Shown: positions 2,015-38,527 of the stretch, piece by piece
Layout of the letters: every line of letters starts with the position of its first letter
How positions within the stretch are numbered: position 1 is the first letter of the stretch
Translations under genes and position numbers: made by a program
Notes under the pieces: model-generated
Told to the model about the DNA's origin: nothing
What the model saw: only the letters and a program-made list of their open reading frames with translations
Database searches by the model: none
Source: Gaiellaceae bacterium
GTDB lineage: Bacteria > Actinomycetota > Thermoleophilia > Gaiellales > Gaiellaceae
Direction: 5' to 3'
Length of the DNA stretch: 64,000 nucleotides
NCBI GenBank assembly: GCA_035506655.1
Contig: DATJOZ010000062.1
Coordinates: forward strand, 3,619 to 67,618

Positions 2015-2036
2015 GAAGTGAATTCATCTAGATATG
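2015..2036 (+). promoter_or_regulatory. copy of the shared AT-rich motif upstream of the pha operon
   Basis: GAAGTGAATTCATCTAGATATG. Compare GAATTGAAGTCGCCTAGACTAG at 26093. Confidence 0.45.
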
Positions 2037-2090
2037 CTTTGCTCGGGCCAACGCCCCGATTCTCTGCCGTTTTAACCGCTTTGGATCGCC

Positions 2091-2113
2091 GATACTGAAG
2101 TCATCTCAGGTTG
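2091..2113 (+). promoter_or_regulatory. second copy of the shared motif, 33 nt upstream of the phaE-like start
   Basis: GATACTGAAGTCATCTCAGGTTG. It shares ACTGAAGTC with the 13494 copy and N4-TCAG with the 10258rc and 38490 copies. Confidence 0.45.
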
Positions 2114-2145
2114 CCAAACCGTCTCGTCGCTGGCATGCTGTCCCC

Positions 2146-2466
2146 ATGGCGACCGAGCAGCCTCTCTGGCTCCAGCTCGTCCTGCGGTTCGAGCGGGCGA
2201 TCGGGGTGCCCGTCGAGTCGGCGGTGCGGAGCGACCGCTACTTCGACCTGGTGACCCACGCGAACCGGACCCGGGCGCGTCTGACCGAGATCGCGGAGGG
2301 CGTCACGGAGGAGTGGCTGCACGTCCTCAACATCCCGGCGAGCAGCGACGTCAGGCGCCTCCGCGAGCAGCTCGCGCGCGTCGAGCGCCAGCTCGGCCGG
2401 CTCGCGAAGGAGATCGAGGACCGCGACGGGCACGGAGAGGCCGGCTCTCGACTCGAGGACGAGTGA
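2146..2466 (+). CDS. small PhaE/PhaR-like PHA synthase partner subunit (106 aa)
   Basis: ATG 2146. C-terminal LNIPASSDVRRLREQLARVERQLGRLAKEIE resembles the nlPt+xDv..L coiled-coil box of PhaE/PhaR. The stop lies 6 nt before phaC. Confidence 0.55.
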   Translation: MATEQPLWLQLVLRFERAIGVPVESAVRSDRYFDLVTHANRTRARLTEIAEGVTEEWLHVLNIPASSDVRRLREQLARVERQLGRLAKEIEDRDGHGEAGSRLEDE

Positions 2467-2472
2467 CGCCGC

Positions 2473-3573
2473 GTGGCGCCGCGCGATCCCGATCTCGCCT
2501 CCCGGCTCCAGAAGGAGGTCGAGCGCTCGGTCCTGCGCGCCCGGAACGGGATCCGCGTCGTCACGGGCGCGAGCAGGCCTCGTGTCGGCGTCACCCCCAA
2601 GGACGTCGTGTGGAGTCGCGACCGCGCGGAGCTCTGGCGCTACCGCGGCGACGGCCCGATCCGCCGCGACCCGCCGATCGTCTTCGTCCACAGCCTCGTC
2701 AGCCGCAGCTACATCATGGATCTGCGGCCCGGGAACAGCACCGTCGAGTTCCTGCTGGGCGAGGGCTTCGACGTCTACATGCTCGACTGGGGCATCGCGG
2801 ACGAGCGCGACGCCGAGAACACGATCGAGACGTACGTCGACGAGTACCTCGCGCGCGCGGTCGAGACGGTGCGGCACGAGAGCGGCAGCGAGGAGGTGAC
2901 GCTCATCGGCTACTGCCTCGGCGGGACGTTCGCGATCCTGTACGCGGCGGGCTACGAGGACGCTCCGGTCCGCAATCTCGTGCTGCTCGCGAGCCCGATG
3001 GACTACAGCGAGATGGGTGTCATGGTCGCCGCCGTCCTCGACAGCCGCCTCGACCCGGAGGAGCTCGTCGACGAGACGGGAAACGTGCCGGCGGATGCGC
3101 TCTACCGGGCCTTCCTGATGCAGGCGCCGACGACCGAGATCGCACGCCACGCGATGCTGCTGCAGAACCTCTGGAACGACGAGTTCGTCGAGGCGTGGCA
3201 GGCGATGGCGCAGTGGTCGCGCGAGCAGGTGCCGTTTCCCGGTGCGGCGATGCGGCAGGTCGTCGCCGACCTCGTGCGGCGCAACGTGCTGATGACCGGG
3301 CGCATGCAGCTGAACGGCCGCGAGGTCGACTTCTCCCGGGTGCGCGGCGACGTCCTCGTCGCGGTGGCCGAGAAGGACAAGGTCGTCCCGCTACGGGCGG
3401 CGGAGCCGGCGACCCGACTCGTCGGCGATCCCGCCCGCCGCGACGAGCTCCGGCTGACCGGCGGGCACGTGACCTTCTTCGCCGGCCGGCATGCGCTCCA
3501 GCGCACGCTGCCCGCATTGACGACCTGGCTCGTCGACCACAGCGACGAGCTCGACCCGGCGAAGGAGCGCTGA
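2473..3573 (+). CDS. phaC: class III/IV-type poly(3-hydroxyalkanoate) synthase catalytic subunit
   Basis: 366-aa alpha/beta fold with the lipase-like box GYCLGG (Cys nucleophile). Later Asp (AEKDKVVP) and His (TGGHVTFF) are candidates for the triad. The size fits class III/IV PhaC. Confidence 0.85.
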   Translation: MAPRDPDLASRLQKEVERSVLRARNGIRVVTGASRPRVGVTPKDVVWSRDRAELWRYRGDGPIRRDPPIVFVHSLVSRSYIMDLRPGNSTVEFLLGEGFDVYMLDWGIADERDAENTIETYVDEYLARAVETVRHESGSEEVTLIGYCLGGTFAILYAAGYEDAPVRNLVLLASPMDYSEMGVMVAAVLDSRLDPEELVDETGNVPADALYRAFLMQAPTTEIARHAMLLQNLWNDEFVEAWQAMAQWSREQVPFPGAAMRQVVADLVRRNVLMTGRMQLNGREVDFSRVRGDVLVAVAEKDKVVPLRAAEPATRLVGDPARRDELRLTGGHVTFFAGRHALQRTLPALTTWLVDHSDELDPAKER

Positions 3574-4103
3574 TGGAGATCCGGCAACTCGAGCTGCGCG
3601 ACCACGACGCGGTGGAACGGTTCGTCGCGCGCATCCCCGAAGGAGACAGGACGTTCTTCAAGGAGGACGTCGCCGACCGGAAGGTGGTCGCCGCGTGGAC
3701 GGAGCTCGGCGCGACGCGTTCGGTCGCCGTGGACGGCGGCGCCGTCGTCGGCTACGTCGCGCTCATCCCGCTGCCCGGCTGGTCGAGCCACGTCGGCGAG
3801 GTCCGCGTGATCGTCGACCCCGACCACCGTCATCGCGGGATCGGCCGGGCGCTCGCCCGGTACGCCGTCCTCGAGGCGCTCACGCTCGGCCTGCGGAAGA
3901 TGGTCGTCGAGGTGGTCGCCGACCAGGAGGCGACGATCGCGATGTTCCGGTCGCTCGGCTTCGAGCCCGAGGCGCTGCTCACGGATCACGTCCGCGACCA
4001 CGACGGCGGCATGCGCGACCTGATGGTGCTCGCGCACTCGGTCGACGACTCGTTCGCGTCGATGGCGGCGGTCGGTCTCGGCGACGCGATCGGCGAGCGG
4101 TGA
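3573..4103 (+). CDS. GNAT-family N-acetyltransferase
   Basis: ATG 3573 overlaps the phaC stop (ATGA). HRHRGIGRALARYAV is a typical acetyl-CoA binding loop. 176 aa. Confidence 0.8.
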   Translation: MEIRQLELRDHDAVERFVARIPEGDRTFFKEDVADRKVVAAWTELGATRSVAVDGGAVVGYVALIPLPGWSSHVGEVRVIVDPDHRHRGIGRALARYAVLEALTLGLRKMVVEVVADQEATIAMFRSLGFEPEALLTDHVRDHDGGMRDLMVLAHSVDDSFASMAAVGLGDAIGER

Positions 4104-5653
4104 AGCTCGGCGACGGTCTCCGCGTCGCCGACGTCGTGCGCGAGCACGCGGCCGCGCGTCCGGACCATGTCGCCGTTCGCCATGGCACGCGCGAGCTGAC
4201 GTACGCCGAGCTCGACGACCGCTCGAGCCGGCTCGCGCAGGCGCTGCTCGACGCCGGCGTCCGCGCCGGCTCGCGCGTCGCGTATCTCGACCGCACCGCA
4301 CCGGAGATCGTCGAGCTGCTCTTCGCGACGGCGAAGATCGGCGCGGTCACGGTGCCGCTGAACTGGAGGCTGGCGCCGGGCGAGCTCTCCGCCGTCGTCG
4401 ACGACGCGCAACCACCCGTTCTGATCGTCGGCGAGACGTATGCGCCGCTTGCGGCGGAGCTCGGACGATCCGAGGCGATCGTCGTCGGGCCGCGCTACGA
4501 GGAGTGGATCGCCGCGTACGACGCGGTCGACCCGCGCGCGCCGGCGAGATCGGCCGATACCGTGCTCCAGCTCTACACGTCGGGAACGACGGGCGTGCCG
4601 AAGGGCGTGCTCACGACGCACCGGAACCTCGCCGCCGCGGCGGAGACCTCGCCGCACTGGGAGTTCGACGCGAACTCGGTGAGCCTGACGGCGCTGCCGA
4701 TGTTCCACATCGGCGGCATCGGCTGGTCGTTCCTCGGGTTGTGGAACGGCGCGACGACCGTGCTCGTCAGCGAGTTCGTCCCGGAGGACGTCCTCGACAC
4801 GATCGAGCGGCAGCGCGTCACGAATGCCGTGCTCGTCCCGACGATGATCCAGATGCTCCTCGACGTGCCGGGCTCCGCCGACCGCGACTATTCGGCGCTG
4901 CGGTCGATCGCGTACGGCGCGTCGCCGATCACGACGCCCGTGCTCACGGCGGCGCTGCGCACGTTCCGTTGCTCGTTCTTCGGCATCTACGGCCTGACGG
5001 AGTCCACCGGCGGCGTGATCCAGCTCGATCCGGCCGACCACGACCCCGGCGGGCCGCGCGAGCACCTGCTGCGAAGCGCCGGCCGTCCGCTCCCCTGGGT
5101 GGAGCTGCGGATCGTCGACCCGGCCACGGGCGCCGAGTGCGCGGCCGGCGAGACCGGCGAGGTCTGGGTGCGCGCGCCGAACGTCACGGCCGGCTACTTC
5201 AATCGCCCGGACGAGACCGCCGCCGCGCTGACGGACGACGGATGGCTGCGCACCGGCGACGGCGGCTTCGTCGACTCCGACGGTTACCTGTTCCTCACCG
5301 ACCGGATCAAGGACATGATCGTCAGCGGCGGCGAGAACGTCTATCCGGTCGAGGTCGAGGAGGCGCTCGCGCACCATCCGGACGTCGCCGAGGCGGCCGT
5401 GATCGGCGTCCCCGACGAGCGGTGGGGAGAGACGGTGAAGGCGATCGTGGTCGCGCGTCCCGGGAGCGCGCCGACCGCGGACGAGCTGATCGCGTTCGCG
5501 CGCGGGCGGCTCGCGGGCTACAAGCTGCCGCGCTCGGTCGAGTTCGTCGAGGAGCTGCCGCGCACCCCGAGCGGCAAGGTGCTGAAGCGCGAGCTGCGGA
5601 AGCGCTACGTGAGCGATGCGGAACGACCGGGGGTCACGCCCGCTCCGAGATGA
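4100..5653 (+). CDS. AMP-forming acyl-CoA ligase (FadD-like)
   Basis: GTG 4100 overlaps the GNAT stop (GTGA). Motifs LYTSGTTGVPKGV, YGLTES, TGDGG and C-terminal PRTPSGKVLKREL are present. Confidence 0.9.
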   Translation: MKLGDGLRVADVVREHAAARPDHVAVRHGTRELTYAELDDRSSRLAQALLDAGVRAGSRVAYLDRTAPEIVELLFATAKIGAVTVPLNWRLAPGELSAVVDDAQPPVLIVGETYAPLAAELGRSEAIVVGPRYEEWIAAYDAVDPRAPARSADTVLQLYTSGTTGVPKGVLTTHRNLAAAAETSPHWEFDANSVSLTALPMFHIGGIGWSFLGLWNGATTVLVSEFVPEDVLDTIERQRVTNAVLVPTMIQMLLDVPGSADRDYSALRSIAYGASPITTPVLTAALRTFRCSFFGIYGLTESTGGVIQLDPADHDPGGPREHLLRSAGRPLPWVELRIVDPATGAECAAGETGEVWVRAPNVTAGYFNRPDETAAALTDDGWLRTGDGGFVDSDGYLFLTDRIKDMIVSGGENVYPVEVEEALAHHPDVAEAAVIGVPDERWGETVKAIVVARPGSAPTADELIAFARGRLAGYKLPRSVEFVEELPRTPSGKVLKRELRKRYVSDAERPGVTPAPR

Positions 5654-5915
5654 ACCGCCCGGTGACCGGGCAGCGGCGCCGCACGCTCGGCGAGCGCCGG
5701 TGACCCGGCGGACGCGGCCGGAAGCCCGCCGCCGCCATCCCGGCGTTCCAGCTCCCGAAGCGGCGGATCACCGTCACGCGCGACGGGTTGTTCGGGCCCG
5801 CGCGGTCCCACTCGTCGGTGGTCGGGAGCCGCAGGTGCTGGCGGTGCCAGAGCTCGATCGCGTACACGATCAGGTCCGGCGTCCAGCGGAGGCCGCGTCG
5901 CGGTCCCGGTCTCAC
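5634..5915 (-). CDS. small protein consisting of a single homing-endonuclease-associated (HNH-repeat-like) module
   Basis: GTG 5915-5913 overlaps the thiolase stop (GTGA). WTPDLIVYAIELWHRQHLRLPTTDEWDRAGPNNPSRVTVIRRFGSWNAGMAAAGF matches the WT.e.ii.al..w....gr.Pt..eW......ps..tv.r.FGSWn.Al..AG repeat. GC3 is high. Confidence 0.5.
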   Translation of the reverse strand: MRPGPRRGLRWTPDLIVYAIELWHRQHLRLPTTDEWDRAGPNNPSRVTVIRRFGSWNAGMAAAGFRPRPPGHRRSPSVRRRCPVTGRFISERA

Positions 5916-7075
5916 AGCCTCTCGATCAGCGTCGCCGTGCCGAGGCCACCGCCGCAGCACATGGTCACGAGACCGACCGACGTGTCGGTGCGCTCCAGCT
6001 CGTGCAGCAGCGTCGTGACGAGTCGGGCGCCGGTCGAGCCGAGCGGATGGCCGAGCGCGATCGCTCCGCCGTTCACGTTCACCTTGTCGACGTCCGGCTC
6101 GAGCTCGCGCTCCCACGCCGCGATCACCGACGCGAACGCCTCGTTGATCTCGACCAGGTCGACGTCGTCGAGCGTCATCCCGTTGCGGTCGAGGATCTTC
6201 CGCGTCGCCGGGATCGGCCCCGTCAGCATGAGGACCGGGTCGACGCCGACGGTGGCCTGGTCGACGATCCGCGCCCGCGGCTTCAGCCCGAGCTCGTCCG
6301 CCTTCCCGCGGGACATGAGCAGCACGGCGGCTGCACCGTCGGAGATCTGGGACGAGTTGCCGGCGGTGATCACGCCGCCGTCCTTGAACGCGGGCTTCAG
6401 CTCGGCCAGCCCGTCGAGCGTCGTCTCGCGCCGGATGCCCTGGTCCTCGGTGTAGACGGACCCGTTCACGCGGAACGGCATCAGCTCGCGCTCGAAGCGG
6501 CCCTCGTCCGTCGCGCGCGCGGCGCGCTGCTGCGAGCGCAGCGCGATCTCGTCGCACTCGCCGCGCGACACGTTCCACCGCTCCGCGATCAGCTCGGCGC
6601 TGAGGCCCTGGTGGACGACGTTGTGCCGCTCGAGCAGCTCGGGCGGGAACGGCGTGCCGAGGTCCTCGATCATCTTCGCGTTCGCCGACAGCGGAACGTG
6701 GCCCATGTGCTCGACGCCGCCGCCGATGGCCACGTCGTGCACGCCCGTCGCAACGAGCGCCGACGCGAAGTTCACCGCCTGCTGCGCCGACCCGCACTGG
6801 CGGTCGATCGTCGTCGCCGGTGTCTCGATCGGCAGGCCCGCCTGCAGCCACGCGTTGCGGCCGACGTTGTACGACTGCTCGCCGTACTGCTGCACGCAGC
6901 CGGTGATCACGTCCTCGACGAGCGCAGGGTCGATGCCGGCGCGGTCGATCACCTCGACGAACGTCGACCCGAGGAGGACGTTGGGATGGACGTCCTTGTA
7001 GTAGCCCTTCTCCGGATGCCCGCGCCCAACCGGCGTCCGCACAGCCTCGACGATCACGACCTCCCGGCCTTCCAT
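5912..7075 (-). CDS. acetyl-CoA C-acyltransferase (degradative thiolase)
   Basis: 387 aa with DRQCGSAQQAV (Cys nucleophile), NVNGGAIALGHPLGSTG and CCGGGLG. An AAGGAG RBS lies 5 nt upstream. Confidence 0.92.
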   Translation of the reverse strand: MEGREVVIVEAVRTPVGRGHPEKGYYKDVHPNVLLGSTFVEVIDRAGIDPALVEDVITGCVQQYGEQSYNVGRNAWLQAGLPIETPATTIDRQCGSAQQAVNFASALVATGVHDVAIGGGVEHMGHVPLSANAKMIEDLGTPFPPELLERHNVVHQGLSAELIAERWNVSRGECDEIALRSQQRAARATDEGRFERELMPFRVNGSVYTEDQGIRRETTLDGLAELKPAFKDGGVITAGNSSQISDGAAAVLLMSRGKADELGLKPRARIVDQATVGVDPVLMLTGPIPATRKILDRNGMTLDDVDLVEINEAFASVIAAWERELEPDVDKVNVNGGAIALGHPLGSTGARLVTTLLHELERTDTSVGLVTMCCGGGLGTATLIERL

Positions 7076-7088
7076 CGCGACTCCTTCT

Positions 7089-7898
7089 CTAGGTGGTGAC
7101 GATCCCGCCGTTGGGGCTCAGCGTCTGGCCGACGAAGAAGCCGGCGTCGTCGCCGGCGAGGAACGCGACGGTCGCTGCGATCTCCTCGGGCCGGCCGAAG
7201 CGGCCGATCGGCGTGCGCAGCCGCTGCGCCTCGCGCAGCGGGTTGTCGATCGCCTCCGACGCTGCCGTGTCGACGAACCCGGGCGCCACGGCGTTGACGC
7301 GGATGCCCTGGACGATCAGCTCCTTCGCGACGGCGCGCGTGAAGCCGATGATCCCCGCCTTCGCGGCCGAGTAGTGCGGATAGCCGGTGCACCCCTCGAG
7401 GCCGCACACGGACGCGATGTTCACGATCGCACCGCTCCGTCGTGAGGCCATGGAGCGCGCCGCGGCGCGCGTGCCGAAGAACGTCCCGTCGAGATGGACG
7501 GCGAGCATGCGCCGCCACTCGTCGTCCGGCAGCCGCACGAGCGCGTCGAGGCCCGTCTCGATCGTTCCGGTGCCGGTCGCCTCGGCGTGCTGGCGCTCGG
7601 CCTCCGGCCCGATGCGCGCGGCCTGCGCGGCCGCCTGGATCCCTGCGTTGTTGACCCAGACGTCGACCGGCCCGAGCTTGGACTCGGTTTGCTCACGCGC
7701 CACCTCCACCGACGCGCTGTTGCTGACGTCCGCTTCGATCGCGATGCCGTCCGTCAGCGTCGCGGTCAGCGCGGCGGCCGCGACGTCGACGTCGAGGACC
7801 GCGACCCGTGCGCCGTCGGCGGCGAGCCGGACGCAGATCGCCTCGCCGATGCCGGAGCCGCCGCCGGTGACGACGGCGACCTTCCCGTCGAGCGTCAC
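7089..7898 (-). CDS. short-chain dehydrogenase/reductase (FabG-like)
   Basis: GTG 7898 overlaps the upstream stop (GTGA). Motifs TGGGSGIG, NNAG and YSAAKAG are present. Confidence 0.9.
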   Translation of the reverse strand: MTLDGKVAVVTGGGSGIGEAICVRLAADGARVAVLDVDVAAAALTATLTDGIAIEADVSNSASVEVAREQTESKLGPVDVWVNNAGIQAAAQAARIGPEAERQHAEATGTGTIETGLDALVRLPDDEWRRMLAVHLDGTFFGTRAAARSMASRRSGAIVNIASVCGLEGCTGYPHYSAAKAGIIGFTRAVAKELIVQGIRVNAVAPGFVDTAASEAIDNPLREAQRLRTPIGRFGRPEEIAATVAFLAGDDAGFFVGQTLSPNGGIVTT

Positions 7899-8920
7899 GG
7901 CACGACCACCGCGCGTCCGAGGACCGCTCCGTCGCGCAGCCGCCGGTAGCCGTCGAGCGCCTCGTCGAGACGCAACTGCTCGGTCTCGATCTCGAGCACG
8001 CCCGCGCGGGCGAGCGCGACCACTTCGTGCAACTCGGGCAGCGTCCCCCACGACGGCCTGCTCGCCGACGCCTCGTACGGCACCTTCCCGAACCCGATCG
8101 GGATCGCGCCGCCGCCGAGCCCGACCATGCTCACGTGACCGCCGATCGCGACGACCGACGCGGCGAGCTGCGCGGTCGAGTCGGAGCCGACGAAGTCGAG
8201 CACGAGCGCCGCGCCGGCCGAGCCTGTCTCCGCGCGGACGTCGCCGGGCTCGAGGCCGTTCGCGTCGAGCGCGGCGTGCGCGCCGGCGCCGAGCGCGACG
8301 CGGCGTGCGTCCTCCCGCATGTCGATCGCGACGATGCGCGCCGGCGTCAGTTCGCGCAGGAGCTGGACGGCGACGTGCCCGAGCCCGCCGACGCCGATGA
8401 CGACGGCGGTCGAGCCCGGGCGAAGCCGGTGCTGCTCGGTCGTGATCGCGTGGTACGGGGTCAGCGCCGCGTCGGTGAGCGGCGCGGCGTGCACCGGGTC
8501 GAGGTTGCCGATCGGCACGAGCAGCCGCGGCGAGGGAACGACGAGGTACTCGGCGAGGCCGCCGTCGAGCCCGAGGCCGCACCCTCCCGCCTGCCGGTGG
8601 GCGCACAGGTTCTCCGCTCCGCGGGCGCAGTCCGCGCACACGCCGCAGCCCCACGGGCCGTAGACGAGGACGGCGTCGCCCTCGGCGAACGCGGTCACCC
8701 CCGCGCCGAGCGCGGCGACGACGCCGGCGGTCTCGTGGCCGAGCGTGAACGGCAGCGTCCACGGCAGCGTCCCCTCGGGCCACTCCATCAGATGGAGATC
8801 CGAGTGGCAGAGCCCGGCCGCGGCGACCTTGACCAGCACCGCGCCGGGGCCGGGCTCGGGCACTTCGACTTCGCGCAGCTCCGGCTCCGCCTCCCAGCGG
8901 ACGAGTTGGACCGCGTGCAT
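7895..8920 (-). CDS. Zn-dependent alcohol dehydrogenase (MDR family)
   Basis: GLCHSDLH, GHETAGVV, the structural-Zn loop GPWGCGVCADCARG and the Rossmann motif GVGGLGH are present. Confidence 0.9.
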   Translation of the reverse strand: MHAVQLVRWEAEPELREVEVPEPGPGAVLVKVAAAGLCHSDLHLMEWPEGTLPWTLPFTLGHETAGVVAALGAGVTAFAEGDAVLVYGPWGCGVCADCARGAENLCAHRQAGGCGLGLDGGLAEYLVVPSPRLLVPIGNLDPVHAAPLTDAALTPYHAITTEQHRLRPGSTAVVIGVGGLGHVAVQLLRELTPARIVAIDMREDARRVALGAGAHAALDANGLEPGDVRAETGSAGAALVLDFVGSDSTAQLAASVVAIGGHVSMVGLGGGAIPIGFGKVPYEASASRPSWGTLPELHEVVALARAGVLEIETEQLRLDEALDGYRRLRDGAVLGRAVVVP

Positions 8921-10222
8921 TCAGGCGTCGACCGTGACCGTGTCGAGCAGCGAGGCGAACTTGCGCAGTGCCGCCTCGCGCCGTGCCGGCACGTACTCCG
9001 TCGGGATCTCGTCCTCCGGCGCGTCGTACGCCTTCAGGATCTGCCGTGCGACCGACTCGCGGTGCACCTCGTCGGCGCCGTCGACGAACCGTGCGTGCCG
9101 CGCGTAGCGGTAGAGCTTCTCGAGCGGCATGTCGGTCGAGTAGCCGAGCCCGCCGTGCGCCTGGAGCGCGCGGTCGACGACGTCGTGGAGCACCTGTGCG
9201 CCGAAGAACTTGATCAGCGAGACGTCCATCCGCGCCGCGCTCGAGCCGTAGGTGTCGATCTTCCACGCGGCGTGAAGCGTCATCAGCCGCGCCGCCTGCA
9301 TCTGCGCCGCGGAGTCGGCGATCCAGTTCTGCACCGTCTGCTTGTCGGCCAGCACGCCTCCGCGTACCGGCCGGTAGAGCGACCGCTCGCAGAGCATGTC
9401 GAAGGCGCGCCGCGCGACGCCGAGCCAGCGCATGCAGTGATGGATCCGCCCCGGCACGAGCCGGTGCTGGGCGATCAGGAACCCGTCGCCCTCCTCGCCG
9501 AGAAGCGCGTCGGGACCGAGCCGGACGTTCTCGTAGAGGATCTCCGTGTGCCCGCCGAGCATCCCGAAGTGCTGGCCGGGATGTTCCATGTTCGGCACGT
9601 CGCGGACGAGCGTCACGCCCGGGGTGTCGACCGGGACGATGAACATCGACGCGCGCCGGTGCGGCTTCGCGTCCGGATCGGTGACGGCCATGACGACGAG
9701 GAAGTCCGCGATCGACCCGTTCGACGTGAACCACTTGTGCCCGTCGAGGATGTAGCCGTCGCCGTCGCGGACGGCCCGCGTCCGGAGCTGGGTCGGGTCG
9801 GAGCCCGGCGTCTCGGGCTCCGTCATCGAGAACGCGGACTTGAGCTCGCCCGCCAGGAGCGGATGGAGCCAGCGCTCCTTCTGCTCCGGCGTCCCGGCGA
9901 GCGCGATGATCTCGCTGTTCCCGGAGTCCGGCGCCTGGCAGCCGAATGCGTTCGGCGCGTAGATCGAGGTGCCGAGGATCTCGTTCATCAGCCCGAGCCT
10001 CACCTGGCCGAACCCCTGGCCGCCGAGCTCCGGCGGCAGGTGCGCGGCCCAGAGGCCGCGCTCCTTCACGCGCTCCTGGAGCGGCGCGTAGATGCGGTCG
10101 AGCTCGGCCTGGCCGATCTCGCTCTCGATCGCCTCGATCGGCCAGATCTCCTCGCGGACGAATGCCCGCATCCAGTCGAGGTGCTCCTCGAACCCGGGCT
10201 CGGTTGAAAAGTCCCATCCCAC
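8921..10222 (-). CDS. acyl-CoA dehydrogenase (ACAD10/11-like FadE)
   Basis: 433 aa. GTG start 10222 is preceded by GGGGAGG. FSMTEPETPGSDP and C-terminal FVDGADEVHRESVAR are present. Confidence 0.9.
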   Translation of the reverse strand: MGWDFSTEPGFEEHLDWMRAFVREEIWPIEAIESEIGQAELDRIYAPLQERVKERGLWAAHLPPELGGQGFGQVRLGLMNEILGTSIYAPNAFGCQAPDSGNSEIIALAGTPEQKERWLHPLLAGELKSAFSMTEPETPGSDPTQLRTRAVRDGDGYILDGHKWFTSNGSIADFLVVMAVTDPDAKPHRRASMFIVPVDTPGVTLVRDVPNMEHPGQHFGMLGGHTEILYENVRLGPDALLGEEGDGFLIAQHRLVPGRIHHCMRWLGVARRAFDMLCERSLYRPVRGGVLADKQTVQNWIADSAAQMQAARLMTLHAAWKIDTYGSSAARMDVSLIKFFGAQVLHDVVDRALQAHGGLGYSTDMPLEKLYRYARHARFVDGADEVHRESVARQILKAYDAPEDEIPTEYVPARREAALRKFASLLDTVTVDA

Positions 10223-10236: not shown

Positions 10237-10287
10237 CTATCTGAGCAGAATTCAGTTCATTATTCCGCCCACCGGCGGGAGCGTCAA
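10237..10287 (-). promoter_or_regulatory. internal promoter plus motif copy ahead of the ACAD gene
   Basis: Minus strand reads TTGACG (10287-10282), 17 nt, AATAAT (10264-10259), then GAACTGAATTCTGCTCAGATAG (10258-10237), then GGGGAGG and GTG. Confidence 0.5.
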
Positions 10288-11449: not shown

Positions 11450-11834
11450 CGACGGGGGCGAACGCGAACGTGACGCGGTCGCCGCGCTCGAGCGCGACCA
11501 CCTCCACCGGCATCCCGATCCGGAGACGCCCCGGATCCGGCTCGGTCAGCCGGCCCTCGACGCGGAGAAGCCCGTCGAACTCGACGTAGCCGACCGCGAA
11601 CGGGGCGAACTCGTCGCCCGGGTCGGGGAGGTACGGGGGCGCCGGCGGCTCGAAGCCCTGCGTCGTCCAGGTCCAGAGCGTCCCACGCGGCGGCAGCAGG
11701 ACGCGCTCGAGATCGCCGCCGCAGGCGGGACAGCGCGCGCGAAGCGGGAACGTGACGCCGCCGCAGTCCCCGCAGCGGCCGGCCTCGAGACGCGGCGGAC
11801 CGTCGCCGAGCTCGAGCGGCGACGCCGCGCTCAC
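11442..11834 (-). CDS. DUF35 OB-fold/zinc-ribbon protein
   Basis: GTG 11834 overlaps the upstream stop (GTGA). It has the ribbon CGDCGG...CPACGG followed by an OB-fold-like C-terminus. It overlaps the thiolase-like start by 8 nt. Confidence 0.8.
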   Translation of the reverse strand: MSAASPLELGDGPPRLEAGRCGDCGGVTFPLRARCPACGGDLERVLLPPRGTLWTWTTQGFEPPAPPYLPDPGDEFAPFAVGYVEFDGLLRVEGRLTEPDPGRLRIGMPVEVVALERGDRVTFAFAPVDE

Positions 11835-13477: not shown

Positions 13478-13493
13478 CGGTGTCTTGCTTACT

Positions 13494-13537
13494 GAACTGA
13501 AGTCGCTTAAGCTACTGCGTCACAGCCCCGCTGTCAA
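13494..13537 (-). promoter_or_regulatory. promoter plus motif for the acyl-CoA synthetase operon
   Basis: Minus strand reads TTGACA (13537-13532), 17 nt, TAGCTT (13514-13509). The plus-strand motif is GAACTGAAGTCGCTTAAGCTA (13494-13514). Confidence 0.55.
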
Positions 13538-14551: not shown

Positions 14552-14573
14552 GACCGTGAGCAAGGAGGAGCGT

Positions 14574-16228: not shown

Positions 16229-16235
16229 AAATGAA

Positions 16236-26071: not shown

Positions 26072-26092
26072 CGCTCTCCGCTCCTTGAGTTC

Positions 26093-26137: not shown

Positions 26138-26201
26138 TGACGCCTCGGCCTTTACGAAATCGGTACTTGCAAACCGATCGCGGATCAGCTAAAACCTCAC
26201 G

Positions 26202-26223
26202 CACCTGAAGTCAGTTCGATAAG
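26202..26223 (+). promoter_or_regulatory. motif copy upstream of the ABC importer operon
   Basis: CACCTGAAGTCAGTTCGATAAG, which shares CTGAAGTC with the 13494 copy. Confidence 0.4.
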
Positions 26224-26368
26224 TTCGGGCGGGTCGCCCACACGGGAGGAGATCGGGGTGAACGACGTGACGGAAGCGAACTCGATCCCCACGGGGGCGT
26301 CTCAACCGGCAGCGTGGAGAACCCCGGCCGCGGCGACCGCGGAGCCGGTCACACGAAGGAGGAATCCG

Positions 26369-27433: not shown

Positions 27434-27465
27434 GCTGACCTCCAGATCGCGCGGGAGCGGACGCG

Positions 27466-30370: not shown

Positions 30371-31182
30371 TCGCGGATCTCCACGGCAAGGTCGCCGTCG
30401 TCACCGGGGCCGCGAGCGGGATCGGCCTCGCGCTGTGCGAGGCGTTCGCCGCCGAGGGGATGCGCATCGCGATGGCCGACGTCGACCCGGCGGGGCTCGA
30501 CGGGGCGGCGGCGCAACTCGCAGCGGACACCGGAGCAGAGGTGCTCGCCGTCGCGACCGACGTGATGAAGTGGGACGAGGTCGCGGCGCTCGAGGCGCGC
30601 GTCCTCGACCGCTTCGGCGCCGTCCACGTGCTGTGCAACAACGCCGGCGTGCAGCTCCCCGGCCTGACGTGGGAGTTCACGCGGCAGGAGTGGGAGTGGG
30701 TGCTGGGCGTCAACCTCGGCGGCGTCGTGCACGGGATCGAGGCGTTCGTCCGCGGGATGGTCGAGCGGGGCGAGCCGGGACACGTCGTGAACACGGCGTC
30801 GGTCGGCGGTCTCGTCGCCTTCCCCGGCCTCGCGCCGTACACCGCGGCGAAGTACGGCGTCGTCGGCCTGTCGGAGTGCCTCGAGCACGATCTCCGCGCG
30901 CAGGACGCGCCGATCGGCGTGTCGGTCCTCTGCCCCGGCCCCGTCCTCAGCTCCCTCCGCGAGAACAGCGCCGTGCTCCGGCCCGGCGGCGAGAACGGCC
31001 GCGACGTGCCGCTCGTCACGATGCCGCGCATCCCGGCGGCGGACGTCGCCGCGCAGGTCCTCGACGCGATCCGCACCGACCGCTTCTGGATCCTCACGCA
31101 TCCGGGATACAAGGTGACGATTCGCGAGCGCTGCCACGGCATCGTCGACACCGACGCCCTCGTCGTCCCCGAGCTCCTGTGA
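30367..31182 (+). CDS. short-chain dehydrogenase/reductase
   Basis: GTG 30367 overlaps the permease stop (GTGA). TGAASGIG, NNAG and YTAAKYG are present. Confidence 0.88.
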   Translation: MIADLHGKVAVVTGAASGIGLALCEAFAAEGMRIAMADVDPAGLDGAAAQLAADTGAEVLAVATDVMKWDEVAALEARVLDRFGAVHVLCNNAGVQLPGLTWEFTRQEWEWVLGVNLGGVVHGIEAFVRGMVERGEPGHVVNTASVGGLVAFPGLAPYTAAKYGVVGLSECLEHDLRAQDAPIGVSVLCPGPVLSSLRENSAVLRPGGENGRDVPLVTMPRIPAADVAAQVLDAIRTDRFWILTHPGYKVTIRERCHGIVDTDALVVPELL

Positions 31183-32327
31183 AGCTCGCGCTCGAACCGG
31201 AGGAGCGCGAGCTGCGCGACGAGGTGCGCGAGTTCCTCGCCGAGCACTGTCCCGACCCGGCGGAGCTGCCGCACGGCCTCGACGAGCGGATCGCGTATCT
31301 CCGCCGCTGGCAGGCGCGCTGCTACGACGCCGGCTACGTCGGGCGCGCGTGGCCGGCCGAGTTCGGCGGGGGCGGGCGGCCGACCGTGGAGCAGATCGTC
31401 GTCGACCAGGAGATGGCGGCGGCGGGCGCGCCCGAGCGGGTCGCGATCGTCGGGCTCGACGTGCTCGGGCCGGCGATCCTCGCGTTCGGGACGGACGAGC
31501 AGCGCAACCGCTACGTCGCTCCGATCCTGTCGGCCGAGGAGCTCTGGAGCCAGGGCTTCTCCGAGCCGGAGGCGGGGTCGGATCTCGCCTCGCTCCGCAC
31601 GACCGCGGTCGAGACCGACGGCGGCTATGTGCTGAACGGGCAGAAGACGTGGGTCTCGTGGGGGCAGTTCTCCCGCTGGTGCGGCGTGCTCGCACGAACC
31701 GACCCCGACGTGCCGAAGCACAAGGGGATCTCGCTGCTGATCGTCGACGTCGAGTCGCCGGGGGTCGAGATGCGGCCGATGGAGCAGATCACGGGACACG
31801 CGGAGTTCTGCGAGCTGTTCCTCGACGACGTGGTCGTCCCGAAGGAGAACCTCCTCGGCCGGCCGGGCCAGGGCTGGGAGATCGCGATGCACGTCGTCGC
31901 GCACGAGCGCGGGACCGCGGCGCTGCCGCGGCAGGTGACGCTGCGGACCTGGCTCGACCGGCTCGTGGCGGACGCCGCCGACCTGGAGCGCGACGGCGCC
32001 CCGGTGCTCGCCGACGAGGCGGCGCAGGCGGCGCTCGCCGGTGCGCTGATCCAGATCGAGGTGCTGCGCCATCACGCGACGCGCACGATGTCGACGTTCA
32101 TCAACGGCGGCGCCGTCGGCCCGGAGAGCTCCGGGGTGAAGCTGCTGATGGCGCAGGCCGAGCAGGCGCTCGGGCTGGCGGCGCTCGAGGTGCTCGGCGA
32201 CGCCGCCGCGGGGGAGTTCTGGCACGAGCGCTACCTGTACTCCCGCGCCGCGAGCGTCTACGGCGGCGCGCAGCAGATCCAGCGCGGGATCATCGCCGAC
32301 CGCGTCCTGTCCCTTCCGAAGGAGTGA
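31179..32327 (+). CDS. acyl-CoA dehydrogenase, alpha-type subunit of a probable heteromeric pair
   Basis: GTG 31179 overlaps the SDR stop (GTGA). FSEPEAGSDL is present. C-terminal VYGGAQQIQRGII replaces the canonical YEGT..IQ. Confidence 0.88.
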   Translation: MKLALEPEERELRDEVREFLAEHCPDPAELPHGLDERIAYLRRWQARCYDAGYVGRAWPAEFGGGGRPTVEQIVVDQEMAAAGAPERVAIVGLDVLGPAILAFGTDEQRNRYVAPILSAEELWSQGFSEPEAGSDLASLRTTAVETDGGYVLNGQKTWVSWGQFSRWCGVLARTDPDVPKHKGISLLIVDVESPGVEMRPMEQITGHAEFCELFLDDVVVPKENLLGRPGQGWEIAMHVVAHERGTAALPRQVTLRTWLDRLVADAADLERDGAPVLADEAAQAALAGALIQIEVLRHHATRTMSTFINGGAVGPESSGVKLLMAQAEQALGLAALEVLGDAAAGEFWHERYLYSRAASVYGGAQQIQRGIIADRVLSLPKE

Positions 32328-32330
32328 TGC

Positions 32331-33320
32331 GTGGACCTCGCGCTGACAGAGGAGCAGACCTGGCTGCGCGAAGCGGTCGGCGAGATGCTCGCGCGCGAGC
32401 CGGACGCCGACACGCTCTGGCGCGAGCTCGTGGAGTTCGGCGCGCTCGAGGTCGGCGGCGACGAAGGTCTCGGCGCCGTCGAGCTCGCGCTGATCGCCTG
32501 GAGCCTCGGCCGGCACCTCGCCGCGGTGCCCTACGTGGACAGCGGCGCGCTCGCATTCGTGGCGCCCGGCCACGGCCGCGTCGCACTCGGGCTGAGTGAG
32601 CCCGGCCGGTCGTTCGCGCCGGCGGAGCCGACGACGTCGCTCGACGGCGGCCGTGTCAGCGGCGAGAAGAGCGCCGTCCCGTTCGCCGCGGCGGTCGATG
32701 CCATCGCCGTCTCCGCGGCGAGCCCGGACGGTCCGGCGCTCGCGCTCGTCGCACCCGCCGCGGGCGGCGTCTCCCTCGAGCCGGAGCCGACGCTCGACCC
32801 GACGCTCCGGCCGGCCCACGTGACCTTCGACTCGGCGGAGGCGGAGCTGCTCGCGCCGCTCCCCGAGTCGCTCGGCGCCGTCGCCGGCGTGCTCGCCGCG
32901 GCCGAGTCCGTCGGCGCAGCCGCCGCGGTGCTCGAGCTCGCCTGCGCCTACGCCGCGCAGCGCCGCCAGTTCGGACAGACGATCGGAAGCTTCCAGGCGA
33001 TCCGGCACCTGCTCGCCGACATGTACGTGAAGGTCGAGAGCTCGTGGTCGAGCGTGCTCTACGCGGCCGCGGCGCTCGACGAGCGCGAGCCCGACAGCCT
33101 CCGCACCGCGTCGATCGCGAAGGCGTACGCCGGACGTGCGACGCACGAGGTCGCACACGGAGCGCTCCAGGTCTTCGGCGGCATCGCCTTCACTGCGGAG
33201 CATCCGGCGCACCGCTTCCTCCGCCGAATCGCCGTCCGCAGCGGCCAGTTCGGCACGCCGCGCGAGCACGAGCGCACCCTCGGACACGATCTCGCCCGAC
33301 GACTGGAGGTCCATGCATGA
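32331..33320 (+). CDS. acyl-CoA dehydrogenase-like, shorter beta-type subunit
   Basis: 329 aa, starting 3 nt after the preceding stop. It has an ACAD C-terminal domain (FGQTIGSFQAIRHLLADM, VFGGIAFTAEHPAHRFLRR). Confidence 0.85.
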   Translation: MDLALTEEQTWLREAVGEMLAREPDADTLWRELVEFGALEVGGDEGLGAVELALIAWSLGRHLAAVPYVDSGALAFVAPGHGRVALGLSEPGRSFAPAEPTTSLDGGRVSGEKSAVPFAAAVDAIAVSAASPDGPALALVAPAAGGVSLEPEPTLDPTLRPAHVTFDSAEAELLAPLPESLGAVAGVLAAAESVGAAAAVLELACAYAAQRRQFGQTIGSFQAIRHLLADMYVKVESSWSSVLYAAAALDEREPDSLRTASIAKAYAGRATHEVAHGALQVFGGIAFTAEHPAHRFLRRIAVRSGQFGTPREHERTLGHDLARRLEVHA

Positions 33321-33679
33321 GCGAGGCGACGTTTCTCCCCGTGTACTTCGCGAAGCTCGACGCCGGCGAGGACGTCGTGCCGATGCTCGCGCCCGACTTC
33401 ACGTTCTCGCTGCTGTGGGCGACGGACGCGGGCGCGCAGGAGTTCGCCGGCAGCTTCGACGCGTTCGAGGGCTATCTCGCCCAGCGCGATCCCGACGGCC
33501 AGCTGCATCACATCTCCAAGTCGCTCCGCGACGGGAGCACCGAGGTCGCGTCCGGCTGGACGACGCGCCACGGCGAGCCGCTCGGCTCGTTCACGTTCGC
33601 CGTCGAGCTCGACGACGACGGGCGCGTGCGCCGCCTGTTCGCCGCGCGCACCGAGACGTTCGACGGCGTCCCCTTCTAG
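33317..33679 (+). CDS. small hypothetical protein, possibly NTF2/SnoaL-like
   Basis: ATG 33317 overlaps the ACAD stop (ATGA). 120 aa with high GC3. The fold assignment is a guess from size and composition. Confidence 0.6.
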   Translation: MSEATFLPVYFAKLDAGEDVVPMLAPDFTFSLLWATDAGAQEFAGSFDAFEGYLAQRDPDGQLHHISKSLRDGSTEVASGWTTRHGEPLGSFTFAVELDDDGRVRRLFAARTETFDGVPF

Positions 33680-35780: not shown

Positions 35781-37756
35781 CGCGAGACCGCGACCATCGC
35801 GGCGCTGCCGAGGCGGCCCTCGTCGAACTGTCGCACCGCGGAGTCGGCGTCGAGCACCGCGTGCGTGAGGCGCCGCCCGGCCGAGCAGTCGCCGATCGCG
35901 ACGAGCGCCGGCACGTCGCCGTCGAGCTCGCGCAGCAGTGCGTCGTCGGGCTGCAGCCTCGTCCGCACCACGAGCAGCTCGGCCTCGAGCTCCGACGCTT
36001 CGCCGGTGACCGCGTCGGCGAGCGACACGGTCGGACCGGACACGGACGTCACCGTGGTCAGCGTCCGGTAGCGGACGCCGTTGCTCCCGAGCCGGCCGAG
36101 GACGCCGGCGACGCTCTCGTGGGGAATCGCGAGCGCGATCCCCCGCGCGGGCGTGAGCAGCTCGACCGCGACGCCGCGCTCGGCAAGGTACTCGGCCGCG
36201 CTGATCCCGTGCCAGAAGCCGGAGCCGTCGTCGAGCACGGCGGCGCGGGCAGGCAGCGTCGCGACGGAGCCGCCGAGCAGATCCCACACCGTCACGACGT
36301 GCGCGTCCGCGTCGAACGGGAACTCCGGCGGCAGCGGCGATGCGCCGGTGGCGGCGACGACGAGATCGGGCTCGTCGTCGAGGATCGCGTCGCGCGTCGC
36401 GACCGTCCCGAGGCGCACGTCGACGCGGAGCCGCGCCAGCTCACGCTCGGCGTAGGCGACGAAGTCGAGCAGCTCGGCGCGGGTCGGCCCGGCGGCCGCG
36501 ATCCGCAGCTGTCCGCCGCTGACGCCGGCCCGCTCGTAGAGAACGACCTCGTGGCCGGACTCCGCCGCGACGCGGGCGGCCTCGAGGCCGGCCGGCCCGG
36601 CACCGGCGACGACGACCCGCTTCGGCGTCGCGGCCCGGCGCGGCGGTCCCCACTCGAGCTCCCGGCCGGCGCGGGCGTTGACGGCGCACCCGAGCTGACC
36701 GTGCGCCGCGCGGCAGTCCTGCACGATGCCGATGCACGGGCGGATCTCCGCCGCGCGTCCCTCGCGCGTCTTCGCCACCCACTCCGGATCGGCGATCATC
36801 CCGCGGCCGATCGCCACGAAGTCGACCTGTCCGGACGCGACCGCGCGCTCCGCGAGCTCGGGGAAGCGGATCCGCCCCGCCGCCATCACCGGCACGTCGA
36901 CGTCCCGCTTCACCGCGGCGGCCCAGCCGAGCGTGAAGCCCTCGGGGTACGCCGTGTCCTTCACGTAGGCGCCGCGCATCCCGGCGGTGAGCGAGATGTA
37001 GTCGACGGGAGCCGTCTCCTGGAGCGCGACGCAGATCGCGCGCGTGTCGTCGAGCGTCAAGCCGTCGGGCGTCTCCTCCTCGGCGCTCAGGCGGATGCCC
37101 ACCGGATAGCCGTCGCCGCAGCGGCTGCGCATCGCCTCGACGATCTCGCGCAGCAGCCGCGTCCTTCCCTCGAGCGTGTCGCCGCGGTAGGCGTCGGTGC
37201 GGCGGTTCGACGCGGGCGACAGAAACTGCGCGACGAGATAGCCGTGCCCGGCGGAGATCTCGACGCCGTCGTACCCGGCCGTCCGGAAGTTCGCCGCCGA
37301 CCGCGCGAACGCGTCCACGATCACGCGGATCTCGGTGTCGGTCATCTCGTGCGGCGGGCTCGGATCGCGGGGCGACGCGATCGGCGAGGGCGCCATCGGC
37401 ACGGAGTTCGTCAGCCCGCCCGGCGACTCTCGGCCCAGGTGGACGAGCTGGCCGAAGATGCGCGCGCCGTGGCGTTGCACCGCCTCGCAGCGGGCGCGCA
37501 GAGCGTCGATCCCGTCCTCGTCCCACGCCTCGACGATGATCCGGACGGGGAAGAGCGAGGTCGGGTGGACGACCGCCGCGCCGGTGACGATCAGCCCGAC
37601 GCCGGCGCGCGCGCGCTCCTCCTGGAAGGCGACGTCGCGGGCGGTCAGGCGCCCGCTCTCGACGAGGCCGGTGCCCATCGGCGCCTGGACGATGCGGTTG
37701 CGGACCGCGACGCCGCCGATCGTCCCCGCCTCGAAGAGATGCGGGTAGTCGCTCAC
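35777..37756 (-). CDS. OYE-family NADH:flavin oxidoreductase fused to an FAD/NAD domain (2,4-dienoyl-CoA reductase FadH-like)
   Basis: GTG 37756 overlaps the upstream stop (GTGA). It has an OYE barrel (QAPMGT, HGYLVAQFLSP), a Cys segment PCIGIVQDCRAAHGQLGC and then VVVAGAGPAGLEAA. Confidence 0.9.
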   Translation of the reverse strand: MSDYPHLFEAGTIGGVAVRNRIVQAPMGTGLVESGRLTARDVAFQEERARAGVGLIVTGAAVVHPTSLFPVRIIVEAWDEDGIDALRARCEAVQRHGARIFGQLVHLGRESPGGLTNSVPMAPSPIASPRDPSPPHEMTDTEIRVIVDAFARSAANFRTAGYDGVEISAGHGYLVAQFLSPASNRRTDAYRGDTLEGRTRLLREIVEAMRSRCGDGYPVGIRLSAEEETPDGLTLDDTRAICVALQETAPVDYISLTAGMRGAYVKDTAYPEGFTLGWAAAVKRDVDVPVMAAGRIRFPELAERAVASGQVDFVAIGRGMIADPEWVAKTREGRAAEIRPCIGIVQDCRAAHGQLGCAVNARAGRELEWGPPRRAATPKRVVVAGAGPAGLEAARVAAESGHEVVLYERAGVSGGQLRIAAAGPTRAELLDFVAYAERELARLRVDVRLGTVATRDAILDDEPDLVVAATGASPLPPEFPFDADAHVVTVWDLLGGSVATLPARAAVLDDGSGFWHGISAAEYLAERGVAVELLTPARGIALAIPHESVAGVLGRLGSNGVRYRTLTTVTSVSGPTVSLADAVTGEASELEAELLVVRTRLQPDDALLRELDGDVPALVAIGDCSAGRRLTHAVLDADSAVRQFDEGRLGSAAMVAVSR

Positions 37757-38487
37757 ACCGCCGTTGCCCCGCCGTCGGCGACGAGCAGCGCACCGGTGAA
37801 GAAGCTCGCCTCGTCGGAGAGCAGGAAGCACGCGCTCGCCGCGATCTCCTCCGGCTCGGCGAGCCGCGCCTGGATCGACTGCGGCAGCGCACCTTCGAGG
37901 TAGACCGGCCGCGTCATCGGCGTGCGCACGCTCCCGGGCGCGAGGACGTTCACCCGCACGTTGTCGACGCCGGCCTCGATTGCGAACTGGCGCGAGAACG
38001 CGATGATGCCGCCCTTCGCAGCCGAGTACGCCGCGAGGTTCACGCGGGCGACGAGCGCGGTGACCGACGCGAGGTTGACGATCGAGCCGCCGCCGGCCGC
38101 GCGGAGATGCGGCAGCGCGGTCTTGCAGACGAGGAACGTCCCGGTCAGGTGCACCGCGAGCATCCGGTTCCAGTCCTCGACGGCCAGCTCCTCGACGGGA
38201 GCGAAGTGGACGAAGCCGGCCGCGTTCAGGACGCAATCGATCCGGCCGAGCCGCTCGCGCGCCTCCCGCACCGCCGCCTGCACCGAGGCCTCGTCGGCGA
38301 CGTCGCAGCCGATCCCGACCGATCCGTCCAGCTCCGAGGCGACCTCCGCCGCGCGGCCCGCGTCCAGATCGACGACCGCCACCCGGCCGCCCTCCGCCGC
38401 GAACCGCCGCGCCGTGGCAGCCGCGATGCCCGAGCCGCCGCCCGTGGCGAACATGACCTTGCCCTCGAAGCGGGTAGACAGCGTCAC
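37753..38487 (-). CDS. short-chain dehydrogenase/reductase
   Basis: 244 aa with TGGGSGIA and YSAAKGG. The start is GTG 38487. Confidence 0.9.
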   Translation of the reverse strand: MTLSTRFEGKVMFATGGGSGIAAATARRFAAEGGRVAVVDLDAGRAAEVASELDGSVGIGCDVADEASVQAAVREARERLGRIDCVLNAAGFVHFAPVEELAVEDWNRMLAVHLTGTFLVCKTALPHLRAAGGGSIVNLASVTALVARVNLAAYSAAKGGIIAFSRQFAIEAGVDNVRVNVLAPGSVRTPMTRPVYLEGALPQSIQARLAEPEEIAASACFLLSDEASFFTGALLVADGGATAV

Positions 38488-38489
38488 CT

Positions 38490-38527
38490 GAACTGAATTA
38501 ATATCAGGAACACAAGAGAGGGGTCAA
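38490..38527 (-). promoter_or_regulatory. promoter plus motif for the four-gene redox operon, in the promoter region shared with the divergent PhaZ-like gene
   Basis: Minus strand reads TTGACC (38527-38522), 17-18 nt, ATATTA/TATTAA. The plus-strand motif GAACTGAATTAATATCAGGAAC (38490-38511) ends 2 nt from the GTG start. Confidence 0.45.

Follow-up and report, generated by a model that had tools for sequence, protein, structure and literature searches.

In a 64,000-nucleotide stretch of DNA from a Gaiellaceae bacterium (contig DATJOZ010000062.1; the whole stretch is called the window below), we found a short inverted repeat at the promoters of genes for coenzyme A (CoA) ester metabolism. The unit is 18 bp long, TGAACTGA-NN-TCAGTTCA, with one strong and one degenerate half. 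Ten such sites, spread from 2 to 38.5 kb, occupy the promoters of about ten transcription units. We predict that the repeat is the operator of a TetR-family repressor system that controls a regulon for acyl-CoA catabolism, and give this a probability of about three in four. The most likely cognate repressors, judged by sequence comparison, are two paralogous proteins encoded among the sites, TetR1 and TetR2. The reading is well supported because the element is a palindrome, it lies at the -10 and transcription start, its footprint is conserved, it is associated with TetR genes across related loci, and TetR1 and TetR2 are the only regulators among the genes scanned at 2-39 kb. As in a typical TetR system, the dyad lies at the target promoters, overlaps the -10/start region, and also precedes the regulator's own gene.

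The first-pass annotation of the window had described nine intergenic copies of an AT-rich word of about 22 nt with the core GAAYTGAAKT. All nine strings are present where they were reported, well above chance in a window of ~71% G+C; for the two reverse-strand copies, the values 17838 and 10258 that were given are the minus-strand 5′ ends, and the plus-strand starts are 17818 and 10237. The exact core occurs 5 times (0.07 expected), and with at most one mismatch it occurs 9 times (1.57 expected), a number reached in none of 100 shuffles. On a gene map built from third-position GC (GC3), all nine of these matches are intergenic, between 2015 and 38499, and none is in the 40-64 kb half of the window. 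The placement in scarce non-coding gaps thus stands, with the correction that the site at 10240 is at an internal promoter between two same-strand genes. The scan with one mismatch also gave an overlooked site at 16228 (GAAATGAAGT), upstream of TetR1, bringing the total to ten (the new site is 16232-16249), and showed that the copy at 26202 fits better on the opposite strand (GAACTGACTT).

TetR1 (16266-16931) served as the query for related loci, with one genome taken per species. This gave 58 loci (1.07 Mb), nearly all from metagenome-assembled genomes (MAGs) of Thermoleophilia (Gaiellaceae, Solirubrobacterales, Conexibacteraceae). The four closest (L001-L004) are from different species than the window and have TetR identities of 91-94%. 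The 58 loci contain 46 occurrences of the core, and the chance rate of the window predicts about one. In context, the core forms the left side of an inverted repeat, a perfect one in L020 (TGAACTGA-AG-TCAGTTCA). The 22-nt word is therefore replaced as the unit by the 18-bp palindrome, of which the described core is the strong half plus the spacer. The partial dyads suggested earlier (AGTC-N5-GACT, AGTT-N5-AACT, CTGA-N7-TCAG) give way to TGAACTGA-NN-TCAGTTCA.

A 22-nt weight matrix was iterated on the window and the 58 loci with a site threshold of 14 bits. It finds 354 sites, 350 of them non-coding, compared with ~1.7 in shuffled non-coding DNA, so the motif is not equally frequent in coding DNA, an outcome that had been named as evidence against a regulon. 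The consensus reads tTGAACTGA-an-TCAgtTCAa. Its information is concentrated in four triplets with a 5-bp period (TGA..TGA..TCA..TCA), and the correlation between the matrix and its reverse complement is r = 0.88. As a guard against circularity, a second 22-nt matrix was made from 325 sites of the related loci, excluding the window and its four closest relatives. Eight of the nine described copies score 18.6-27.4 bits with it, the ninth (2091/2094) 12.5 bits, and the new site at 16.2 kb 13.0 bits, in a shifted register (22-mer at 16225, minus strand). At 10 bits or more this matrix has 11 matches in the window, compared with 0.17 in its shuffled non-coding DNA, and no match in its coding DNA. 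The 40-64 kb half has no site of at least 14 bits. It is a sugar and sugar-acid cluster with GntR/FCD regulators, and its SDR and Zn-dehydrogenase paralogs are without the motif, so promoters of this genome do not carry the word in general.

The position of the repeat relative to the promoter is consistent. Strict promoters (TTGACA-N16-19-TANNNT) near sites in the loci have a -10 that starts 13-21 nt 5′ of the operator center in 43 of 56 cases, and TANNNT hexamers cluster at -22 to -9 and +6 to +15 from the center and are nearly absent farther out. A strict scanner for Escherichia coli-type promoters gave only two operator-linked promoters in the window (10287-10259 and 38527-38500), since the -10 hexamers here follow the pattern TANNNT. 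A relaxed scan gave both of them again and added promoters at the 13493, 17751, 17822, and 26092 sites. With both scans, six window operators have a -35/-10 pair whose -10 touches the proximal operator edge. If RNA synthesis starts about 7 nt past the -10, its first nucleotide would fall within the operator, where a repressor classically binds. The -10 hexamer lies in or next to the weak half of several window sites, a possible reason for the degeneracy of that half. We aligned orthologous gaps of the window and L001-L004 (five species): the operator, -10, and -35 are invariant, and the -35/-10 spacer and flanks vary. The site upstream of TetR1 in L001-L004 reads TGAACTGA(G/C)TTCTCGA, and its strong half is perfect.

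Relative to the genes, the sites are oriented at random. In 71 cases the strong half faces the same way as the downstream gene and in 72 cases the opposite way, and another 155 sites are flanked by a gene on each side. The signal is therefore read on DNA and not on RNA, which fits a dimeric DNA-binding protein.

The report of two TetR genes inside the cluster is confirmed by Pfam (16266-16931 and 19663-20301): both products match PF00440 (TetR_N) and PF17932 (TetR_C_24) above the cut-offs. The AlphaFold 2 (AF2) model of TetR1 is all-helical, and its top fold matches in the PDB are all TetR proteins. TetR1 and TetR2 have the same recognition helix, and the helix-turn-helix (HTH) region is near-invariant in all homologs of the 58 loci, at 51-94% overall identity. 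A site lies upstream of 40 of the 47 TetR homologs that have their own upstream gap (85%), compared with 256 of 539 other genes (47%; odds ratio 6.3, p = 4e-7). Two sites precede the TetR homolog in a Streptomyces locus (L033), and the locus of a cultured relative, Solirubrobacter soli DSM 22325 (L045), has 5 sites. The genes that a site most often precedes across the loci are those for SDRs, TetRs, Zn-dependent alcohol dehydrogenases, DUF35 proteins, aldehyde dehydrogenases, and hydratases; acyl-CoA synthetases, MBL hydrolases, and acyl-CoA dehydrogenases are also among them.

Many loci contain two or more TetR paralogs. At least two paralogs of the subfamily lie within one 20-kb locus in L013, L014, L018, L023-L028, L031, L035, L041-L043, and L053, with sites mostly nearby. 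In Solirubrobacterales, two distinct site variants, GTTGAACTGACTTCAACTGAGA and ATTGAAGTGAcccCAACTCTAT, recur before the regulator gene, a hint that TetR paralogs have split sites between them. At E <= 1e-20, public data contain 3496 TetR1 homologs, mostly from soil metagenomes, and many carry the automatic Joint Genome Institute (JGI) label "cholesterol catabolism regulator". A search of a plasmid collection with the TetR1 protein gave 3 matches (38-42% identity).

Several points weigh against the repressor reading. Because the loci were chosen with TetR1, the association of regulator and motif is partly built in, and because many of the loci are close relatives, the counts and the Fisher p-value overstate independence. 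The gene starts and promoters are predictions from simple rules. Four loci (L029, L048, L052, L055) encode a homolog with the same recognition helix and have no site. We considered recognition-helix differences as the cause of these site-free loci and ruled them out, as the helices are the same as in the others. A metagenome scan for TGAACTGANNTCAGTTCA that was blind to the regulator gave, among the 120 matches listed, 113 low-GC chance matches and 7 high-GC matches; no TetR homolog is beside the 7 high-GC matches, whose contigs are mostly 1-5 kb.

These last observations would also be expected if the palindrome were bound by a different factor, encoded outside the cluster, and the TetR genes were mere members of the regulon. 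This is the main competing explanation, and it gains from the 47% of other gap-preceded genes that carry a site, since the site is not unique to TetR genes. We nevertheless consider it improbable. TetR homologs are the family most consistently preceded by a site, no other regulator is present among the genes scanned in the 36-kb motif-bearing part, and regulator and sites occur together even in the Streptomyces locus. A near-invariant HTH in the subfamily fits a common operator, and an 18-bp dyad on the -10/start is the usual arrangement for the TetR family.

The word could be part of the promoter itself, an alternative sigma recognition element or an extended -10/discriminator, given that it is always at promoters and touches the -10, with the half-site TGAACT one base from TANNNT. 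This is less probable still: housekeeping-type -35 and -10 hexamers are present beside the motif, and a dyad that occurs equally in both orientations is unlike a sigma element. At site 4, the minus-strand promoter is TTGACA-N17-TAGCTT, and on the plus strand the operator occupies the spacer between TTGCTT and TAAGCT; the motif is thus downstream of the -10 in one promoter and in the spacer of its divergent partner. An alternative sigma factor of the extracytoplasmic function (ECF) type (GAAC...CGT) was rejected by eye, as the spacing is 20 nt and not 16-17 and the motif is a dyad. Least probable of all, to the point of being implausible, is a role in the mRNA leader, either as a place where a small RNA or an RNA-binding protein attaches or in translation, just 5′ of the ribosome-binding site. 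The conserved half does lie 14-22 nt 5′ of the start codon, adjoining the Shine-Dalgarno sequence, in several window sites, but a DNA dyad with random orientation to the gene, single sites that serve divergent genes, and broad distances to start codons all speak against it.

A search of the literature for the operator string and its description did not find either, and the half-sites with "TetR" gave only unrelated primer matches. Neither TetR1 nor TetR2 reaches any NCBIfam equivalog; the best is SACE_7040, with 48-50 bits compared with a cut-off of 250. The nearest solved structures by sequence and AF2 fold are PfmR, a Thermobifida TetR, DarR, KstR2, AibR, BkaR, and FadRs (16-29% identity); the fold search bore out the set of neighbors that sequence had given. 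Most of these (PfmR, KstR2, AibR, FadRs) we take to be acyl-CoA-responsive TetRs, and for this reason the ligand is predicted to be an acyl-CoA. DarR, which binds a nucleotide, is structurally as close as the acyl-CoA binders, so the ligand prediction is not secure, a further point on the opposing side.

The earlier view that the word is not a KstR, KstR2, or FadR operator is borne out by our pattern scans and by comparison with the FadR box. PfmR of Thermus thermophilus (PDB 3VPR) is the best match by sequence and fold (E 2e-15 to 9e-18, 28-29% identity), a distant homolog. It is reportedly an acyl-CoA-responsive TetR repressor of phenylacetate and fatty-acid genes, according to work attributed to Agari et al. 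in 2012; its operator is reportedly GC-rich and unrelated to the one here. KstR2 (Rv3557c; PDB 4W97/4W1U) has the same domain type and fold neighborhood (E 1e-9 to 1e-11, template-modeling (TM) value about 0.7). In mycobacteria it is the TetR protein that represses steroid ring C/D catabolism and responds to HIP-CoA. KstR2 likewise regulates its own gene, and its targets are clusters that encode acyl-CoA synthetases, FadE, EchA, and thiolases. However, the identity is only about 25%, and the gene content here has no recognizable ring-cleavage genes. The KstR2 operator consensus, said to be AnCAAGnnCTTGnT in Kendall et al. of 2010, has four matches with at most one mismatch in the window, all in genes and none at the sites. 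The actinobacterial KstR (Rv3574) regulon has the same logic, with one TetR repressor and one palindromic operator for dozens of lipid or sterol catabolic promoters over a large cluster. KstR itself was rejected as an identity: its equivalog NF033703 gives 27.1 bits compared with 280, and its operator, reportedly TnnAACnnGTTnnA, has 0 matches in the window. "Motif X"/Rv0767c from a Mycobacterium sterol study was also dropped as a lead, as its sequence is only in a figure and the supplements do not have the sites.

The closest parallel in operator design is FadR (YsiA) of Bacillus, also a TetR-family repressor of beta-oxidation operons, which is released by long-chain acyl-CoA and whose structures are among the fold neighbors. 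The Bacillus FadR box GATGAATGAATACTCATTCAT is a pseudo-palindrome whose half-sites are tandem TGAA repeats (GATGAATGAAT*ACTCATTCAT), forming two overlapping inverted repeats with one dimer on each (PMC5397183). Each half of the repeat here also has repeated TGA(A) triplets, although the period is 5 bp (TGAAC-TGAA) and not the 4 bp of Bacillus, and the C-terminal domain is TetR_C_24. The proteins are not orthologs: the NF053878 equivalog gives 31.9 and 33.3 bits compared with a cut-off of 200, and identity in the fold alignments is 16-20%. By analogy, the resemblance suggests that the repressors here may bind as a dimer of dimers.

We propose the following mechanism. TetR1 and TetR2, as one or two dimers per site, would bind the operators and block RNA polymerase. 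An acyl-CoA thioester of the pathway would then bind TetR1 and TetR2, which would probably come off the DNA. Release would induce the whole set, which includes acyl-CoA synthetases and dehydrogenases, hydratases, SDRs, thiolase/DUF35 pairs, an ABC importer, and the operon of a protein that resembles the polyhydroxyalkanoate (PHA) synthase PhaC. TetR1 has its own operator and, from the sequence, is apparently autoregulated; TetR2 lies inside a target operon. A broader proposal can be put forward only tentatively, and we think it is more likely wrong than right. An expanded KstR2/FadR-like TetR subfamily, with several paralogs per genome and a near-invariant recognition helix, may be the master switch of lipid or sterol-like acyl-CoA catabolism throughout Thermoleophilia. 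It would bind a single 18-bp operator with four TGA triplets (5-bp period) as a dimer of dimers on overlapping inverted repeats, and would also gate the PhaC-like polyester synthase operon. Such binding is seen for Bacillus FadR, QacR, and DarR.

The first-pass annotation had proposed one TetR-controlled regulon that couples PHA synthesis and mobilization with acyl-CoA catabolism. Comparative evidence argues for including the CoA-ester operons and the PhaC-like operon. The PHA synthesis part of the proposal is half borne out, and the link to PHA mobilization is weak. The PhaC-like protein (2473-3573) matches TIGR01836, class III PHA synthase, over model positions 7-349 of 350 (E 1e-78), with a score of 264.6 bits that is below the cut-off of 365.3. 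Its translation contains GYCLGG, EKDKVVP, and GGHV, the motifs of a Cys-Asp-His triad. The Cys and Asp align with the catalytic domain of Cupriavidus necator PhaC (5HZ2), and the His, outside that alignment, was assigned by eye. The partner of a class III synthase, PhaE, is about 40 kDa; the "phaE-like" protein (2146-2466) has 106 amino acids and matches no PhaE model or NCBIfam family, and in Pfam only a marginal HalX coiled-coil.

A Solirubrobacteraceae MAG (L020) has these four genes as an operon too, at 55-68% identity, with the 106-amino-acid gene kept beside the PhaC-like gene. A site of 23.7 bits (L020:1483) lies 25-44 nt before the ATG and is the positional counterpart of the weak window site at 2096-2113. 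On the basis of this conserved operon and site, we count the PhaC-like operon among the members of the regulon. A further match of the PhaC-like protein is to NCBIfam PRK07868, a 994-amino-acid "acyl-CoA synthetase", over the N-terminal 360 residues of that family. This match implies that other actinobacteria have a PhaC-like domain and an acyl-CoA synthetase fused in one protein. Here the PhaC-like, GNAT, and AMP-ligase proteins are encoded by separate genes of one conserved operon (window 2473-5653; L020:1838-5031). Given the match and the separate conserved genes, the enzyme may be something other than a classical PHA synthase.

For PHA mobilization, the hydrolase at 38615-39583 is a generic alpha/beta hydrolase. 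It scores 142 bits with the PHA depolymerase model TIGR02240 (cut-off 250.6) and 61.6 with NF050089 (cut-off 300), and many other alpha/beta-hydrolase families score similarly. The operator at 38489 overlaps the promoter of the divergent SDR gene and is ~17 nt 5′ of the likely -35 of the hydrolase's own promoter (TCAACG...TACAAT, read by eye). Homologous hydrolases in a few loci do have an upstream site.

The sites and predicted target operons are listed in Table 1. The FAD-dependent oxidoreductase encoded at 24734-26071 is a KstD/TcuA-like flavoprotein. At 31179-33320, full-length and truncated acyl-CoA dehydrogenase genes are adjacent and resemble the FadE pairs whose heteromers degrade steroid side chains. 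An APH-type kinase gene (18608-19666) lies beside CoA-ester genes. The FadE-like pair, the kinase, and the DUF35/thiolase pairs suggest a branched or alicyclic acyl-CoA substrate and not plain fatty acids.

Table 1. Operator sites, TetR genes, and predicted target operons in the window (scores in bits; gene assignments from the source named)
Feature	Position	Strand	Description
Operator site 1 (AGAAGTGAATTCATCTAG)	2014-2031	+	Distal, upstream of phaE-like/PhaC-like operon; 19.7 bits, 19.0 with leave-out matrix; first-pass copy 2015
Operator site 2, weak (TGAAGTCATCTCAGGTTG)	2096-2113	+	33-50 nt 5′ of ATG 2146; 12.0-12.5 bits; first-pass copy 2091
Target operon	2146-5653	+	Small coiled-coil "phaE-like" protein (no family), PhaC-like synthase, GNAT acetyltransferase, acyl-CoA synthetase (Pfam/NCBIfam)
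Target operon	5912-10222	-	Acyl-CoA dehydrogenase, Zn-alcohol dehydrogenase, SDR, thiolase (Pfam)
Operator site 3 (TGAACTGAATTCTGCTCA on minus strand)	10242-10259	-	28.0 bits; directly after -10 of TTGACG-N17-AATAAT (10287-10259, minus strand); invariant in L001-L004
Target operon	10292-13477	-	Acyl-CoA synthetase, DUF35/ChsH2-type OB-fold protein, SCP-x-type thiolase-like protein (Pfam)
Operator site 4 (TGAACTGAAGTCGCTTAA)	13493-13510	+	27.7 bits; in 66-nt divergent gap
Target operon	13544-16228	+	MBL-fold hydrolase, SDR, xylose-isomerase-like TIM-barrel protein (Pfam)
Operator site 5, new (TGAAGTGAGTTCTCAACA)	16232-16249	+	15.0 bits; 16 nt 5′ of TetR1 GTG; TACTGT precedes
TetR1	16266-16931	+	TetR_N + TetR_C_24 regulator (Pfam); PDB neighbors PfmR, KstR2, AibR; AF2 model confidence (pLDDT) 88.8
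Operator site 6 (TGAACTGAAGTTGTTTAA)	17751-17768	+	28.4 bits; minus-strand promoter TTGATT-N18-TAGTTT for enoyl-CoA hydratase gene 16933-17730
Operator site 7 (TGAATTGAATACAGTTTA on minus strand)	17822-17839	-	26.8 bits; weak half holds -10 TAAACT of plus-strand TAGACG-N16-TAAACT
Target operon	17853-24730	+	SDR, APH-type kinase, TetR2, thiolase-like protein, DUF35/ChsH2-OB protein, enoyl-CoA hydratase, ADP-forming acyl-CoA ligase (Pfam/NCBIfam)
TetR2	19663-20301	+	TetR1 paralog within target operon; 66% identity, recognition helix TALYHYFESKQH identical
Operator site 8 (CGAATTGAAGTCGCCTAG)	26092-26109	+	19.4 bits; minus-strand promoter TTGACA-N18-TAGTCT for FAD-dependent oxidoreductase gene 24734-26071
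Operator site 9 (CGAACTGACTTCAGGTGC on minus strand)	26201-26218	-	21.0 bits; 40 nt 5′ of GTG 26258
Target operon	26258-33679		Headed by site 9; ABC importer, SDR, two acyl-CoA dehydrogenases (Pfam)
Target operon	38487-33676	-	Headed by site 10; SDR, OYE/FadH-like reductase, luciferase-like monooxygenase, Zn-dehydrogenase (Pfam)
Operator site 10 (TGAACTGAATTAATATCA)	38489-38506	+	27.0 bits; overlaps -10 GATATT of minus-strand TTGACC-N16-GATATT

Other regions of the window have features of their own. A strong sigma-70-like promoter at 39584-39649 (TTGCTT-N18-TATAGT) has an inverted repeat, TTGCGT-N8-ACGCAA, across its -10. It precedes a small open reading frame (39650-39961, no Pfam match) and then a stretch encoding an XRE-type HTH (..RELAARTDISNAYLSQLERG..). 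This region probably represents an independent small regulator that has an operator of its own. A 71-amino-acid dodecin gene at 40350-40565 on the plus strand (PF07311, E 4e-24) was overlooked by the GC3 gene caller. In the sugar-acid cluster, an AT-richer gap at 55347-55398, beside a GntR/FCD gene, contains the palindrome ATCATATGAT, and another at 60406-60494, upstream of an enolase-superfamily gene, contains GGTCTGAT twice, ~65 nt apart. These repeats may be operators of the GntR/FCD regulators encoded at 50157-50954 and 55399-56124.

Thermoleophilia (Gaiellales, Solirubrobacterales) are abundant soil actinobacteria with almost no experimental genetics. The predicted regulon is of a familiar kind in an understudied class and does not involve a new regulatory principle. 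It provides a defined operator, TGAACTGA-NN-TCAGTTCA, conserved in about 350 instances, and it names candidate repressors and lists target operons. The operator and repressors allow regulon prediction in any Thermoleophilia genome or MAG, and with it exploration of the substrates of their large acyl-CoA clusters. The pair could also serve as an orthogonal part for high-GC hosts. The PhaC-like operon appears, from its gene neighborhood and sites, to be tied to acyl-CoA catabolism in two distant lineages. If it is gated by the same switch, carbon storage in these bacteria would be tied directly to acyl-CoA supply.

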